From Candidatus Marinacidobacterales bacterium (GTDB lineage Bacteria > Acidobacteriota > Vicinamibacteria > Marinacidobacterales > SMYC01), in NCBI GenBank assembly GCA_965237955.1, contig OZ250169.1, forward strand, positions 6,176,001-6,240,000: 64,000 nt of DNA, given 5' to 3'. The position numbers and the translations under genes were made by a program. Every line of letters starts with the position of its first letter. Positions within the stretch are counted from its first letter, which is position 1. Below, piece after piece: positions 4,568 through 11,639 of the stretch. The notes beneath the pieces are model-generated. The model saw nothing but the letters and a program-made list of their open reading frames with translations, was not told the origin of the DNA and ran no database searches.

Positions 4568-5089
4568 TTAAGGGAATTCTCGTTGACGCCGATCGTTCCC
4601 ACGTCCGCGGACTTGGCGCATCATTTCCCCGAGCCTCCTCTGAAGCTCGACCTCGAGGATGCGGTAGCGCGCTCGCTGGCGGATGTCGAGGTTGGCGTCG
4701 ATGGCCGCGTAGCGACTCCTCTCGTTGGCCGCAAAGTCGTCGCGTAGCGTGTCGAGCTCGCTCAAGAGCGGTTGCAGCTCGCTCTCCCCCGCTTGCTCAC
4801 GCTGTAGCGTCTGCCGCATCTGCCTCAGAACTTGCATGCGGTCGCGGCGATAACCGCGCCTCGTGTCCGATAGCTTCTTCTGCGCGACCACCATGGCGCC
4901 GAACTGCTCGTCGGTCAGGTCAAGCGAATCCTGAAGCTTGCTTAGGATGTAAGCCTCCATCATGCCTTCGACTTCCTGGCGATTCGGCTGAGGATTCCGC
5001 TCCCGATTCTGCTCGGTCGATCCCGTCGCCATAGCGAAGACGGGCAACAGCACAAACGCTAGCAGTAGTTTCTTGCTCAATATCTTCAT
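4568..5089 (-). CDS. Periplasmic Spy/CpxP-like (heavy-metal sensor type) helical protein
   Basis: Signal peptide MKILSKKLLLAFVLLPVFA; LDLTDEQ motif and LDIRQRARY; third gene of the ECF operon. Confidence 0.75.
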   Translation of the reverse strand: MKILSKKLLLAFVLLPVFAMATGSTEQNRERNPQPNRQEVEGMMEAYILSKLQDSLDLTDEQFGAMVVAQKKLSDTRRGYRRDRMQVLRQMRQTLQREQAGESELQPLLSELDTLRDDFAANERSRYAAIDANLDIRQRARYRILEVELQRRLGEMMRQVRGRGNDRRQREFP

Positions 5090-5619
5090 AGGCTGGACCT
5101 CATTGCTTCCGTCAGCCGCTCGACGAATCGCTGCCGCTCGCCCGGAGTCAGGCCGCCCGGAAACACGAAAGCGTCGAGCGTGAGCTCTTCGAAGGACGGA
5201 GAAGCGACCTCGTCTAACTCTTCGTCCATCGCGCCCGACAGCGCAAGCAAGAACTGGAACTCTTCGTCCTGTTCCAACGGTGGCAGCAGATCTTCCACCT
5301 CTGGCACTTCTACTGATGCAGGCGCGGTTCCGCTCCGGTCGAGGTTCATCCAATACACCGCGCTCACCGCGATGACGACCGCCGCCGCCGTCGCCAACCA
5401 CCGCGAGAAGTTCCGTTGCACCGGTGGCCGCGCGAGAGGCGCTGCGGTCACGACATCTTCATGGAGTATCGCCAACGTTTGCTCGAGCTCTTCGAGCTCC
5501 TGTCGACACTCGGAGCAGTTCTCGAGATGCTGGCGCCAGGGCGCATCGACGGGCGAGCCCTCGAGCACGTCAACGAAAACTTCCGGCGTGAGATGGTCTT
5601 GCTGGCGTTCGCTGGTCAT
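5086..5619 (-). CDS. Zinc-binding membrane anti-sigma factor
   Basis: HLENCSEC (HxxxCxxC) motif, single TM, overlaps the ECF sigma gene. Confidence 0.85.
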   Translation of the reverse strand: MTSERQQDHLTPEVFVDVLEGSPVDAPWRQHLENCSECRQELEELEQTLAILHEDVVTAAPLARPPVQRNFSRWLATAAAVVIAVSAVYWMNLDRSGTAPASVEVPEVEDLLPPLEQDEEFQFLLALSGAMDEELDEVASPSFEELTLDAFVFPGGLTPGERQRFVERLTEAMRSSL

Positions 5620-6185
5620 GATGGCGTTCCGTCGAATAGCTTACTCGACTCTGCCTCCAGATACTTTCGCAGATTCTTCAAAGCGAAGAAGAAGTTCGCC
5701 TTGGCGGTCCCAACGGGACAGTCCATGATATCCCCAATTTCCTTGTGGGTAAGCTCCTGATAGACGCGGAGCACAAGCGTCATTCGTTGTCGTTCGGGAA
5801 GCCGGGCGACGGCGGTGCGCACCGCCGCCGACACTTCTTTTCGACCGAGCCGCTCCATCGGGGACGGTCCCGGGTCCACGAGATCCGCCGGGAGCTCCTC
5901 CACCCGCCGCTTCCGCGACGACACCCAGTTCAGACATACGTTCACCGCGATCCGGTAGACCCAGGTCGAAAGGCTCGCCTCGCCCCGAAATCCCGAGAGC
6001 CCCCGGTACGCTCGAAGGAAGACTTCCTGAGCCAGGTCTTCCGCGTCGGCGCGATTCCCGGTATAGCGGTAGCAGAGCCCGTAGACGCGCCCGCGATGCG
6101 TTCGCACGAGGTCGTCGAACGTTTGCGTTTCGTCAGTCTCGTCCGGCGGCGCCACCACAAATTCCAGCTTCTCAGCTGCGCTCAC
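5616..6185 (-). CDS. ECF sigma-70 factor
   Basis: AEDLAQEVFLRAY, STWVYRIAVN, LPERQR, EIGDIMDCPVGTAK. Confidence 0.95.
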   Translation of the reverse strand: MSAAEKLEFVVAPPDETDETQTFDDLVRTHRGRVYGLCYRYTGNRADAEDLAQEVFLRAYRGLSGFRGEASLSTWVYRIAVNVCLNWVSSRKRRVEELPADLVDPGPSPMERLGRKEVSAAVRTAVARLPERQRMTLVLRVYQELTHKEIGDIMDCPVGTAKANFFFALKNLRKYLEAESSKLFDGTPS

Positions 6186-6289: not shown

Positions 6290-6319
6290 TTGACACAAAA
6301 CCCGCCAAAGTGCTACCCT
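6290..6319 (+). promoter_or_regulatory. Candidate housekeeping sigma70 promoter for the actin-like operon
   Basis: TTGACA-N18-TACCCT with extended -10 TG. Confidence 0.5.
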
Positions 6320-6454: not shown

Positions 6455-7528
6455 ATGGCTGTCCGAAAGTCTCTCAAAAAGCCCGCGCCAAGAACCAAGA
6501 CGCGCGCCAAAGCTCCGGCACGCAAGAGACCGACCCAATCGAACGGCAAGCCCATCGGTTTGGATCTCGGCACGAGTACCGTCGTCGCCGCGCGGCAAAA
6601 CGGCCGCGGCGTTCGCGCGAACACCGAGCTCAACGCGTTCATCGAGCTGCCAAAGTCCCGCTTTACCGAGCAGATCCTCGACCAAAACAAGATCGACTTC
6701 GTACGCGACAACCGTCACCTCATCGTGTTCGGAAACGGCGCGTTCAAGTTCGCGAACATGTTCAACGCCGAGACCCGGCGGCCGATGCGCCACGGGCTCG
6801 TCAATGCCGGTGAGCCCCACGCGCAAAAACTTCTCGAGGCCATCGTCGAAAAACTCGTCGGCAAGCCGCAGTCGAAGGGCGAGCTTCTTTGCTTCAGCGT
6901 TCCCGGTCCGCCTCTGGGCTCGCCGTCGAGCCTCGTGTACCACGAAGCTTTGATGAAGCAGATGCTCGACAACATGGGCTTCGAAGCCAAGTCGATCAAC
7001 GAAGGGCTCGCGGTCGTGTTCTCCGAGCTCGAGAAGGAGAACTTTTCGGGCATCGGGATAAGCTTCGGAGGCGGGCTCACGAACGTGTGTCTCGCCTATC
7101 TTTCGGTTCCAGTGTTTACCTTTGCCGTGGACAAAGGCGGTGATGACGTCGACGAAGCGGTCGGCGAAGTGACCGGCGAGACGGCGACGCGCGTCAAAGC
7201 AATCAAAGAAGAGGGGCTCGACTTGAGCCGCAAGGCTCGCAGCAAAGTCGCCGGCGCACTCCAGATATACTACGACGATCTGATCGCGACCGTCGTCGAA
7301 GGTATCGGGGAGGCGTTTTCGCGCTCCGACCGCATTCCCAAGCTCGACAAACCGCTTCCGGTCGTCCTCGGTGGCGGCACGGCTCTACCGAAGGGTTTCG
7401 TCACCCGGTTCTCGAAAGCTCTCGAAGAAGAGAACCTGCCCATCGAGCTGGACGCCGTGCGCAGGGCCAACGAGCCTCTCACCGCGACGGCACGCGGAGC
7501 GCTTTTGGCCGCGTTGTACGAGAACTGA
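6455..7528 (+). CDS. Actin-like ATPase, paralog 1 (MamK/Mad28-like), with basic N-terminal tail
   Basis: Phosphate1 GLDLGTS, connect1 INEGLAV, phosphate2 ISFGGGLTN, GGDDVD, adenosine LGGGTALPKGF, ATARGAL. Confidence 0.88.
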   Translation: MAVRKSLKKPAPRTKTRAKAPARKRPTQSNGKPIGLDLGTSTVVAARQNGRGVRANTELNAFIELPKSRFTEQILDQNKIDFVRDNRHLIVFGNGAFKFANMFNAETRRPMRHGLVNAGEPHAQKLLEAIVEKLVGKPQSKGELLCFSVPGPPLGSPSSLVYHEALMKQMLDNMGFEAKSINEGLAVVFSELEKENFSGIGISFGGGLTNVCLAYLSVPVFTFAVDKGGDDVDEAVGEVTGETATRVKAIKEEGLDLSRKARSKVAGALQIYYDDLIATVVEGIGEAFSRSDRIPKLDKPLPVVLGGGTALPKGFVTRFSKALEEENLPIELDAVRRANEPLTATARGALLAALYEN

Positions 7529-7547
7529 TTCGAAGAAGGAGACCCCC

Positions 7548-8558
7548 ATGGAAAACATGGTAGCGAGCGGCGAAGGCCGTATCGGGCTAGACGTCGGCAC
7601 GAGCAAGATCATGTCGATACGCCAAAGCGGCAACCAGCTAAAGGCATCCGCCGAGATCAACGCGTTTCTGCCGCTCCCCTATTCCCGCATCACCGAGAAC
7701 ATCCTTCTGCAAAACAAAGTCCACTACTACCAGAACAACGGGCAATTCTTCGTCTACGGCAACAACGCCGAAAAGTTCGCAGGGCTCTTCAACGCGGAGA
7801 CACGGCGACCCATGAGTGGCGGCCTCATCAACCCGGACGAGCCCGCCGCGCTCACGCTCATCAAGGTCATCATCCAGGGATTGGTGAAAAAGCCAAAGGC
7901 GAAAGACGATCTCGTGTGCTACTCGGTTCCAGGCGCTCCAGCGGACGCACCGAACAATCTGATCTACCACGAGCAGCTTCTGAAGGGCTATCTGAGCGAG
8001 CTCGGGTACCAATCGAAGAGCGTGAACGAAGGCCAGGCCATTATTTTCTCCGAGCTCGAAAAGGAGAATTTCACCGGTATCGGGATTTCCGTGGGCGGCG
8101 GAATGTGCAATGCATGCCTCGCGTACCTTTCGGTCCCGGTGGTGTCGTTCTCGACGTCCAAGGCGGGAGACTTCATCGACAAGAGCGTGGGATCGGTAAC
8201 CGGTGAGTCCGCGACCCGGGTGAAGATGATCAAGGAGCAGTCGCTCGACCTCGCACACTCTCCTAAAGACAAGGTAGAAGAAGCGCTCCATATCTACTAC
8301 GATGAGGTCATCGCCACGCTCATCAGCACTCTCAACGAAGCGGTGAGCAAGACTTCGACGGAGTCGCACCAATTGGACAAACCCCTGCCCGTCGTTCTCG
8401 CCGGCGGCACGGCACAGCCGAAGGGCTTTCGTGATCGCTTCGAGAAAGCTCTTTACGAGTCGAGTTGCCCGGTGCCCATCTCCGAGGTGAGGCTCTCACC
8501 GAACCCGACACAGGCCACCGCGCGCGGCGCATTCATCGCGGCGGTGTACGACAGCTAA
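7548..8558 (+). CDS. Actin-like ATPase, paralog 2
   Basis: AAGGAG RBS before ATG 7548; GLDVGTS, VNEGQAI, ISVGGGMCN, LAGGTAQPKGF; colinear with paralog 1 over its full length. Confidence 0.88.
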   Translation: MENMVASGEGRIGLDVGTSKIMSIRQSGNQLKASAEINAFLPLPYSRITENILLQNKVHYYQNNGQFFVYGNNAEKFAGLFNAETRRPMSGGLINPDEPAALTLIKVIIQGLVKKPKAKDDLVCYSVPGAPADAPNNLIYHEQLLKGYLSELGYQSKSVNEGQAIIFSELEKENFTGIGISVGGGMCNACLAYLSVPVVSFSTSKAGDFIDKSVGSVTGESATRVKMIKEQSLDLAHSPKDKVEEALHIYYDEVIATLISTLNEAVSKTSTESHQLDKPLPVVLAGGTAQPKGFRDRFEKALYESSCPVPISEVRLSPNPTQATARGAFIAAVYDS

Positions 8559-8596
8559 CCCGTCTCGGCAGGAGCCAATAGCGTCCCGTCGCCGAC

Positions 8597-9907
8597 ATGC
8601 TGACGTCTCGTCCACCAACTGCCCCTCCCTCGCTTCCTCATAAACGACTTCGCGCGAGCCTCGACTTTCTTTCGTCGAGAATTCCCGATCCGGTCAACAA
8701 GCTCTGGTTCATCAACCGCACGCTCGAGGTCTTCGACGAGAAACCGCAGGGGGTCAAGAGGCTCCCGATCGTGCGCGGTATCGTGTTCCATTACGTCGCG
8801 CTCGAATCACTCGGCGAGCTCGTTTGGAGCCCGAAGCCAACGACGGTCGCTCTTCCCCGAGGACCGCTTTTGGCGCTCTATCGACTTCGTCACGTGCTCC
8901 TCGTGGTGACGTTTCTCGCCGTCGGCTTCGGAGGCTACCGCATCGGGCTCGTCGGCTATGAAGCCGCACAATCAGGCGCCGACTGGCTGTTTGCTCAGCT
9001 GGTACCGGTGCCCGCGGCCGCATCCACGACGGCGCTCGAAAGCTATCCCGACAGGCTTACGGTGCCGCCCACAAACGTGTGGCTGGTCTCGAACGTAGGT
9101 GAGGTCGAGCTCTGGAGTAACGGCCTGCGCGTCGATACCAGCTTCGAGACACCGGGCAACCCGCGGAGCTTTTTCGCGTTTCCGAAAGACGGCTCGCCGC
9201 CGGTCCCTCTCGGAGGCGCACCCATCGGAATCGTGTACCACGCGAGCCAAAGCGACATGGCGCCGTTCGCGCAACAGTTCAATCGCAACATCCTGACGAC
9301 GACGCGCGATCTCGTCGGGTGGCTCAGCCGTCGTGAAATCTACAACTACATGATCGACCGCTTCGGCCAGGTCTACCGCATCGTCTCCGACAAAGGGGTC
9401 GCGGTCCATGCCGGGGTCTCGATCTGGTCGGACGACGATTACTACCATCTGAACTTGAACGAGAGCTTCATCGGCGTCGCGTTCGAAAGCCAATGGAGCT
9501 CTGGTCGGGACATCATTACGCCCGCACAGGTCCAGGCTGCGCTCAACCTCACCGACGTCCTGCGAGCGCGCTATCGGATCGCGGACGCCAACTGTGTCCC
9601 TCACGGCCTCGTCTCGGTGAACGCCGCGAAAAAGCTCGTCGGCTACCACGCCGACTGGGCGAAGAACTTCCCCTTCGGCGCTCTCGGGTTGGACGACAAG
9701 TATGAGCTCGCTCCGGCGAGCATGACCGCGTTCGGGTTCAGCTACGACGAGGATCTCGTGAGCCGCCTCGGTGGCGAGCTTTGGCCCGGCGTTGGCTTCG
9801 CCGAGCAAGAGGTGCGGACCCGCGCCCGAGAAGAGGGCGTCACGCCCGAACTCTTTCGGGCACGGATGCACCAGCGTTATCTTCAGAACGTCGCCCTCGC
9901 GAAGTAG
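8597..9907 (+). CDS. Membrane-anchored N-acetylmuramoyl-L-alanine amidase (Amidase_2/PGRP fold)
   Basis: IVYHAS, YNYMIDRFG, AVHAG, NESFIGVAFE, TPAQ, VPHGLV; one TM at about aa 98-120. Confidence 0.82.
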   Translation: MLTSRPPTAPPSLPHKRLRASLDFLSSRIPDPVNKLWFINRTLEVFDEKPQGVKRLPIVRGIVFHYVALESLGELVWSPKPTTVALPRGPLLALYRLRHVLLVVTFLAVGFGGYRIGLVGYEAAQSGADWLFAQLVPVPAAASTTALESYPDRLTVPPTNVWLVSNVGEVELWSNGLRVDTSFETPGNPRSFFAFPKDGSPPVPLGGAPIGIVYHASQSDMAPFAQQFNRNILTTTRDLVGWLSRREIYNYMIDRFGQVYRIVSDKGVAVHAGVSIWSDDDYYHLNLNESFIGVAFESQWSSGRDIITPAQVQAALNLTDVLRARYRIADANCVPHGLVSVNAAKKLVGYHADWAKNFPFGALGLDDKYELAPASMTAFGFSYDEDLVSRLGGELWPGVGFAEQEVRTRAREEGVTPELFRARMHQRYLQNVALAK

Positions 9908-11273: not shown

Positions 11274-11639
11274 ATGACAATCAAGAGACCGCCAAGAAAG
11301 GACGGCGCTGCTTGCGACTCGGCAAGGTCGAGACGTCTCCGCGAGTCGAAGGTCAAAAAGAAAGCGCTCGGCCTCGCCGCGTTTCTCATCGTCGCGCTCT
11401 CGATCCTGAACGCTTTTTTTGGCGATCGCGGCGTCCTCGGTCTCTTGGAGGGGCGTAACAACTATCGCGCTCTCGAGAGAGAAGTCGAGGCCCTTCAAGC
11501 GAACAATCAACGCCTCGCAAACGAAATCCACGCACTTCGTACCGACCCGCTCGTCATCGAGCGCCGCGCGCGGGAAGTCCTGGGAATGGCCCGCCCTGGA
11601 GAAATCGCGCTACAGATACGCACTCCGGACGAAAACTAG
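11274..11639 (+). CDS. ftsB: Septum formation initiator FtsB/DivIC
   Basis: TM, GDRG, coiled coil, IERRAREVLGMARPGE. Confidence 0.88.
   Translation: MTIKRPPRKDGAACDSARSRRLRESKVKKKALGLAAFLIVALSILNAFFGDRGVLGLLEGRNNYRALEREVEALQANNQRLANEIHALRTDPLVIERRAREVLGMARPGEIALQIRTPDEN

Follow-up and report, generated by a model that had tools for sequence, protein, structure and literature searches.

A conserved actin–amidase gene module with actins of the volactin/Mad28 family in Acidobacteriota

The window analyzed here, 64,000 nucleotides (nt) of contig OZ250169.1 (positions 6,176,001 to 6,240,000, assembly GCA_965237955.1) from a Candidatus Marinacidobacterales bacterium of the Acidobacteriota, carries two actin-like ATPase genes, A and B, followed by a gene for a predicted peptidoglycan amidase. 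These genes form a real, conserved actin–amidase module whose actins belong to a named family, Pfam Volactin (PF25216). The conserved unit is one actin with the amidase; the tandem A–B pair, judged by sequence, is an old duplication within this order. It is very probable that actin and amidase act in one process.

Among 201 genomes of the class, 90 carry an actin over the cut-off, 90 carry the amidase and 88 carry both; the named carriers are all metagenome bins, and one of the 88, the unpublished genome G113, contributes to the trees and to the promoter count, although no conclusion depends on it alone. Actin and amidase are same-strand neighbors, at most 1 kb apart, in 84 of the 88, a count drawn from related genomes that represents perhaps four or five lineages and not 84 events. 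The genes fall on separate contigs in three further carriers and are 2.6 kb apart in the last. The amidase precedes a single actin in 65 of the 84 adjacent cases, and the actin precedes the amidase in 19, all from the window's own order and 18 of them with two actin copies. A sample of 301 genomes across the phylum contains ten with the actin and nine with the amidase, each of the nine within 1.4 kb of an actin; three of these nine also belong to the class sample, and in one genome of the phylum sample (G843) the two genes are divergent.

The neighborhoods of the 80 best genome loci give a similar picture. Actin and amidase occur together in 74, including three from Desulfobacterales, and in the other six, where the genes lie apart, the amidase is kept elsewhere in the genome. 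No other neighbor recurs in more than 18 of the 80 loci, antisense shadows of the actin aside. The linkage holds through a reversal of gene order and across three lineages of two phyla. An earlier note on this DNA had suggested a conserved actin–actin–amidase triplet; the adjacency of actin and amidase was borne out, while the tandem pair is limited to the window's own order. Because the 65 reversed loci hold only one actin, a heteropolymer is not essential to the module.

The two actins are colinear, with 178 of 325 positions identical (55%) and one gap, and both contain the actin-fold motifs, as the earlier note had claimed: phosphate 1 (DLGTS in A, DVGTS in B), connect 1 (INEGL, VNEGQ), phosphate 2 (ISFGGG, ISVGGG) and adenosine (LGGGTA, LAGGTA). 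These ATP-binding motifs are invariant in the actin alignment of relatives. The Ser that replaces Asp in phosphate 2, also remarked on in that note, proved to be a trait of the whole family, including three haloarchaeal members and Mad28, and the idea that it marks an inactive ATPase was rejected. The Volactin profile matches A at 287 bits and B at 275 bits against a cut-off of 35, and both matches are full-length (profile 3-321 of 321); the description of the pair as actins without a family is therefore withdrawn. Both share 37-42% identity with three haloarchaeal PF25216 members that carry the same Ser motif, and close relatives of both come from bacteria named as Vicinamibacteria or Marinacidobacterales. 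As a control, the profile finds matches in Haloferax volcanii; VolA itself lies outside the alignment.

Profiles of other actin families do not account for the pair. The MamK profile NF040964 (cut-off 400) gives 27.3 and 34.4 bits, the salactin profile NF053533 (cut-off 400) 20.7 and 26.1 bits, and the MreB profile TIGR00904 (cut-off 365.75) 22 bits for A and no match for B. The FtsA profile TIGR01174 has no match at the locus, neither actin is listed for the BeeR profile NF053558 at E-values up to 1, a profile search for BeeR gave an E-value of 0.11, and phmmer with B found no match in the PDB. The genome's own MreB (G000:C1:6585595) and ftsA (G000:C1:3460480) lie away from the locus, in line with the earlier observation that it has no mreC/mreD or ftsZ context. 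The structure model of B nevertheless adopts an actin fold (predicted local distance difference test score, pLDDT, 89.8) with a domain layout like that of MreB, MamK and BeeR, which head both fold searches: BeeR aligns at Z 28.4 (root-mean-square deviation, rmsd, 3.1 over 300 aligned residues, 19% identity), MreB at Z 26.1 (rmsd 3.3, 286 aligned, 18% identity) and MamK at a TM score of 0.70 (18% identity).

Mad28 is reported to combine the Ser in phosphate 2 (xxxSxGxGxx) with xExx in connect 1 (PMC10653835). This signature is present in A and B (INEG and VNEG) and is not diagnostic, being shared by haloarchaeal members. A search of 401 Desulfobacterota genomes found 12 with a PF25216 gene. One of them, the magnetotactic genome G213, encodes MamK (482 bits), MamB/M-like and MamE-like proteins and FeoB, and its PF25216 gene (L197:3303-4469), which follows HEAT-repeat and coiled-coil genes in a cluster of magnetosome type, is read as mad28 from gene context. 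Since this gene scores 265 bits on the Volactin profile, Mad28 and volactin apparently belong to the same family, which comprises 511 clusters at 50% identity with E-values up to 1e-30 and includes members from large phages. The mad28-like gene of G213 shares 46.6% identity with A and 45.2% with B, which exceeds the values for the three haloarchaeal members.

A phylogeny, named in the earlier note as a check, places both proteins in the volactin/Mad28 family. In the tree of 43 rows, chosen by the authors from 93, A and B each form an order-wide clade (100/100), are mutual sisters (91/88) and fall with the mad28-like gene in one bacterial branch that has strong support (100/99). The clade with the context-read mad28 (100/100), which rests on one context-identified sequence, excludes them; at the level of sequence, A and B are cousins of Mad28 and not its orthologues. 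A first tree rooted on MreB had its root set by a long branch and was replaced by these later trees. The suggested resemblance to MamK/Mad28-like actins accordingly stands for Mad28, in motifs and in identity, and fails for MamK, whose cut-off is far from reached. The absence of magnetosome genes from the window extends to the genome for the two markers searched, MamK (best 69.7 bits against a cut-off of 400, the match being MreB) and MamB (best 119.6 bits against 350); other mam genes were not searched.

The third gene encodes a predicted zinc amidase. It matches PF01510 (Amidase_2) at 53.8 bits against a cut-off of 26, and the genome has no second Amidase_2 match. AmpD is the best Foldseek match of its model (E-value 2.4e-07, ~21% identity), and the sequence scores 22.7 bits on the AmpD model, whose cut-off is 143. 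Its candidate catalytic residues are near-invariant: H215, E297, H336 and D353, which we take, by analogy with AmpD, to be zinc ligands and the catalytic Glu, are all unchanged in 30 rows, and across 89 amidase domains H215 and D353 are kept in all and E297 in 88. Ahead of this domain, hydropathy peaks at 1.66 near residues 100-120 (about 1.6-2.9 in full-length relatives), within a long helix of the model (88-135). Because this hydrophobic helix has a net charge of +8 before it and -3 after it, an N-in, C-out topology is predicted.

The cytoplasmic head that this topology implies is helical in the model, a folded domain larger than a docking peptide. P32, K35 and L36 are invariant in 30 rows; the P and L of the head motif are also invariant in 80 rows, which were picked by that motif after nine loci without it and three shortened loci had been dropped. 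An IxDPxxKLxF-like motif is kept in Vicinamibacteria, Blastocatellia and Desulfobacterales. At sequence level none of the 80 heads matches a Pfam family and no usable Atlas match was obtained; no new fold is claimed for the head.

Relatives of the two actins differ at their N-termini. The tail carries a net charge of +3 to +12 in all 31 A-clade proteins examined (the clade has 34) and of -3 to +1 in all 11 B proteins examined, and the five single-copy tails examined are all acidic. An HU-like domain stands in frame ahead of the actin in 17 of the 80 genome loci (Table 1) and was confirmed by Pfam in the three database proteins tested. As all 17 fusions retain GGAGG and ATG where the actin part itself begins, the HU–actin gene likely yields two products. 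Five of the 17 fused actins do not adjoin the amidase. Four HU-fusion records are labelled Clostridia, yet they group with Blastocatellia in the tree. Other architectures in the family comprise two database proteins with two volactin domains per chain, fusions to a zinc ribbon, one fusion to a receiver domain, and a long open reading frame (ORF) with Wzz and ParA-like domains (P0144, P0167, P0152, P0154, P0157, P0197).

The amidase is most simply seen as cargo of the actin, since a conserved cytoplasmic head travels with a filament-forming actin family. Direct binding between the two is marginally favored. Chances appear evenly balanced for the full chain of events, in which a filament of these actins would hold the amidase head and so restrict the cleavage of peptidoglycan to one selected area of the wall. 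Reports on relatives describe Mad28 as polymerizing with ATP-gamma-S (PMC10653835) and as binding liposomes with a preference for curved membrane (PMC12713370), and volactin as forming dynamic filaments anchored at their tips (PMC10869688). By analogy with these two proteins, A and B would polymerize with ATP at the inner face of the membrane. Amidase residues 16-76 would then contact the actin, as co-inheritance and the BacA–LmdC precedent suggest, and stem peptides would be removed locally where the geometry of the membrane, probably its curvature, gives the cue. The outcome would be an accessory zone of shape or growth that supplements MreB and FtsA. In the window's order a single ancestral actin would have duplicated, with copies that divide the job between them, probably as an A–B co-polymer in which A retains domain I residues and gains the basic tail and B retains domain II residues.

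The split retention behind the last step was counted at positions conserved across 82 single-copy relatives. Of those in domain I, A retains 12 and B 5; of those in domain II, A retains 3 and B 12 (p 0.006 by Fisher's test, p 0.04 in a strict count). This post hoc count of non-independent positions with many conservative swaps fits a division of labor and perhaps a co-polymer. Several observations weigh against a filament that steers the amidase. The HU fusions and the basic tail of A point to DNA, for which a filament holding an amidase has no need. Ten of the 12 Desulfobacterota carriers lack the amidase, and none was found in the genome of the volactin carrier G046; wall cutting is therefore not the family's general job. 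The module was not found in any of 28 sister-family genomes, nor in several genomes of the window's own family that are 93-96% complete, and is dispensable. Actin and amidase trees are congruent (Mantel r 0.93, 60 loci), which shows joint descent only, and the amidase-linked actins cluster weakly (85/56).

The N-terminal features hint at a link between nucleoid and wall, in which one actin form would bind DNA and the other make up the filament, while the amidase, as anchor, would fix the chromosome to the place where the wall opens during division or budding. The HU-like fusions with their retained internal starts and the uniformly basic A tail favor it, and salactin is cited as aiding DNA partitioning (PMC10869688). 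Yet 65 single-actin genomes of the class manage without such an arrangement, the single-copy tails are acidic, and some of the HU-fused actins do not stand beside the amidase. Basic tails also bind anionic lipids, and on balance this link is unlikely, though it is the main rival. A broader version, which we regard as doubtful, would have an actin cytoskeleton connect the chromosome, through the membrane, with an enzyme that cuts the wall, by means of DNA-binding and plain actin forms. This design would have arisen twice: in Blastocatellia by fusion to HU while the internal start was kept, and in the window's own order by gene duplication and a basic tail. Mad28 and volactin would then have branched off from this one family of membrane-tethered actins. 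Budding in Blastocatellia is no more than a lead here, since a literature search on it gave nothing usable.

The actin could also serve as a switch and not a track, an ATP-dependent regulator at the amidase head that turns cleavage on and off without long filaments. PilM–PilN and FtsA–FtsN offer analogies, and their structures occur in the fold-search results. A single actin is commonly paired with a single bitopic partner, the head is larger than a docking peptide would be, and the enzyme is the genome's sole Amidase_2 match. Both studied family members, Mad28 and volactin, form filaments, however, and the domain layout is that of MreB, MamK and BeeR, so that a switch seems rather improbable. 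Membership of one pathway or regulon without contact, in which an actin concerned with shape is merely co-transcribed with an amidase for wall recycling or cell separation, would suit the conserved housekeeping-type promoter, the six of 80 loci where the genes lie apart and the divergent pair in G843. It is hard to square with a linkage that outlasts gene-order reversal in three lineages of two phyla, or with a conserved cytoplasmic head on an enzyme that acts outside the membrane, and there is little to recommend it. Least credible is a role like that of Mad28, the closest studied relative, which is reported to position magnetosome chains (PMC12748827): the filament would place an inclusion or trans-envelope structure for which the amidase opens the wall. 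Against it, MamK and MamB are below cut-off and no third partner recurs in the 80 loci. A filament that confines the amidase to a wall patch is the reading preferred here.

The layout of the locus is as first described: the ORFs and their gaps of 19 nt (A–B) and 38 nt (B–amidase) on the + strand were re-found in the sequence (Table 1). The single promoter proposed in the earlier note fared less evenly. A strict scan gives no + strand site, the candidate falling below its threshold, and yet, of 17 distinct sequences that precede paralog A in relatives, 16 contain TTGACA with TG-C-TACCCT at a similar distance (24 entries before repeats were merged; the genome background is 0.05 TTGACA per 480 nt). 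A terminator scan at the locus gave matches no better than chance. The GGAG of B is well spaced, and that of the amidase lies ~22 nt ahead of its ATG (8567-8599), which may set a low enzyme-to-actin ratio. Short, near-identical metatranscriptome contigs map on A and B, and two bridge the gaps (X15, 7395-7688, A–B; X18, 8464-8672, B–amidase); they come from runs selected because they contain this stretch and so were not used as evidence of transcription.

Table 1. Features of the actin–amidase module (window positions) and loci of the HU–actin fusions in relatives
Feature	Position or loci	Strand	Identifier or basis
Actin-like ATPase A, volactin/Mad28 family	6455-7528	+	P0001, 357 aa; PF25216 287 bits; A clade 100/100
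Actin-like ATPase B, volactin/Mad28 family	7548-8558	+	P0003, 336 aa counted from ATG; PF25216 275 bits; B clade 100/100
Predicted bitopic (N-in, C-out) zinc N-acetylmuramoyl-L-alanine amidase	8597-9907	+	P0002, 436 aa; PF01510
Candidate sigma-70-type promoter, TTGACA then TG-extended -10 (TG-C-TACCCT)	6290-6319	+	Sequence; motif recurs in relatives
Basic tail at the N-terminus of A (~residues 1-33), net +12; candidate segment for binding DNA or membrane	6455-6553	+	Charge comparison
Conserved cytoplasmic helical amidase head, residues 16-76, IxDPxxKLxF; candidate actin-binding domain	8642-8824	+	Alignment, model
Predicted transmembrane helix of amidase, ~residues 100-120	8894-8956	+	Hydropathy, charge, model
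Amidase catalytic region with H215, E297, H336, D353	9230-9655	+	Conservation
HU–actin fusions	L078, L079, L080, L082, L083, L086, L094, L096, L102, L105, L107, L108, L114, L125, L134, L144, L146		

Genes flanking the module in the window include, upstream, a divergent gene for an extracytoplasmic function (ECF) sigma factor together with a probable anti-sigma gene (4568-6185, - strand) and, 1.4 kb downstream, an FtsB/DivIC gene (11274-11639, + strand); neither flank is widely kept beside it. The flanking genes were rejected as parts of the module: the ECF sigma factor recurs in 2 of the 80 loci, an FtsB-like gene in 3, and MobA and V4R in 9, in loci of the own order only. In the single-contig genome G107 (L052), amidase residues 267-434 alone are present and no actin was found, a possible case of joint decay.

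Volactin genes without this amidase occur in other settings. In G046 (L209), a volactin of another clade adjoins a ParA/MinD-like gene. Two sister Desulfobacterota (L206:1863-5406, L207:7005-10385) have a volactin gene, a familyless gene of 130-147 residues and a class A penicillin-binding protein gene on one strand; in our reading, a volactin gene two genes upstream of such a protein is one further tie to wall enzymes. In G425, G483 and G534, tandem MamK-family genes with a small gene between them (L204, L212 in the first two) had no magnetosome genes among the neighbors scanned, and a lone volactin gene stands beside an HrpA helicase gene. A viral scan with A alone found nothing, and one with the alignment found ten volactin-family loci. 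Volactin genes on viral contigs (L147-L156, L160, L161), 31-37% identical and several on phage genomes of 241-595 kb, lack the amidase, which was nearby in none of 15 phage and haloarchaeal loci.

If the proposed function is correct, abundant uncultured Acidobacteriota would possess, in addition to MreB and FtsA, a third actin system that acts on peptidoglycan, one equipped with a dedicated hydrolase. The module would also join magnetosome Mad28 and haloarchaeal volactin in one large family that extends to large phages, and membrane tethering of the family's filaments could be approached with the three-gene cassette in E. coli, as for Mad28 and LmdC. No description of an actin–amidase pairing was found in the literature searched, which covered few subscription papers, and no text joining Mad28 and volactin was found there, the Mad28 supplements lying outside that coverage. 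The design principle is already known from bactofilin–LmdC; the actin–amidase function described here is predicted.

Each component has a characterized counterpart. Like Mad28 of deep-branching magnetotactic bacteria, A and B have the phosphate 2 Ser and connect 1 xExx; unlike it, they are tandem duplicates whose partner is a wall amidase and not Mad25, and neither MamK nor MamB reaches its cut-off in their genome. With volactin (VolA, HVO_2015 of Haloferax volcanii; PMC10869688) they share the full-length PF25216 match, and they differ from it in bacterial host, in having a peptidoglycan enzyme as neighbor and in forming a separate clade. BeeR and MamK are the nearest solved folds to B, at only 19% and 18% identity and with MamK scores of 27 and 34 bits against a cut-off of 400; BeeR is also described as having a disordered N-terminal extension (PMC11929497). 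AmpD, AmiD and AmpDh2 of the Amidase_2 family share the fold and candidate zinc site of the enzyme, to which the amidase here adds a cytoplasmic head, a membrane helix and C-terminal helices.

For the module as a whole, the Bacillus subtilis MreB isologues, reported to control LytE and CwlO (PMC3817527), are likewise actin paralogs with differing roles in the control of wall hydrolases. They belong to another actin family (18% identity in the structure alignment), whereas the enzyme here is dedicated and encoded in the same operon. The closest precedent is LmdC, which bactofilin is reported to recruit via an N-terminal cytoplasmic tail (KD about 15 uM) and which sets local growth or curvature in Hyphomonas neptunium and Rhodospirillum rubrum (PMC10945521). 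In both systems a cytoskeletal gene stands beside a bitopic peptidoglycan hydrolase with a cytoplasmic N-terminus, a topology that is predicted here. They differ in the cytoskeletal element (an actin-fold ATPase as opposed to a bactofilin), in the enzyme (Amidase_2 as opposed to an M23 peptidase) and in the head, predicted to be helical here and a beta-hairpin in LmdC; binding has been shown for LmdC and is a candidate property here. By analogy, the module probably works like bactofilin–LmdC without being a member of that system.

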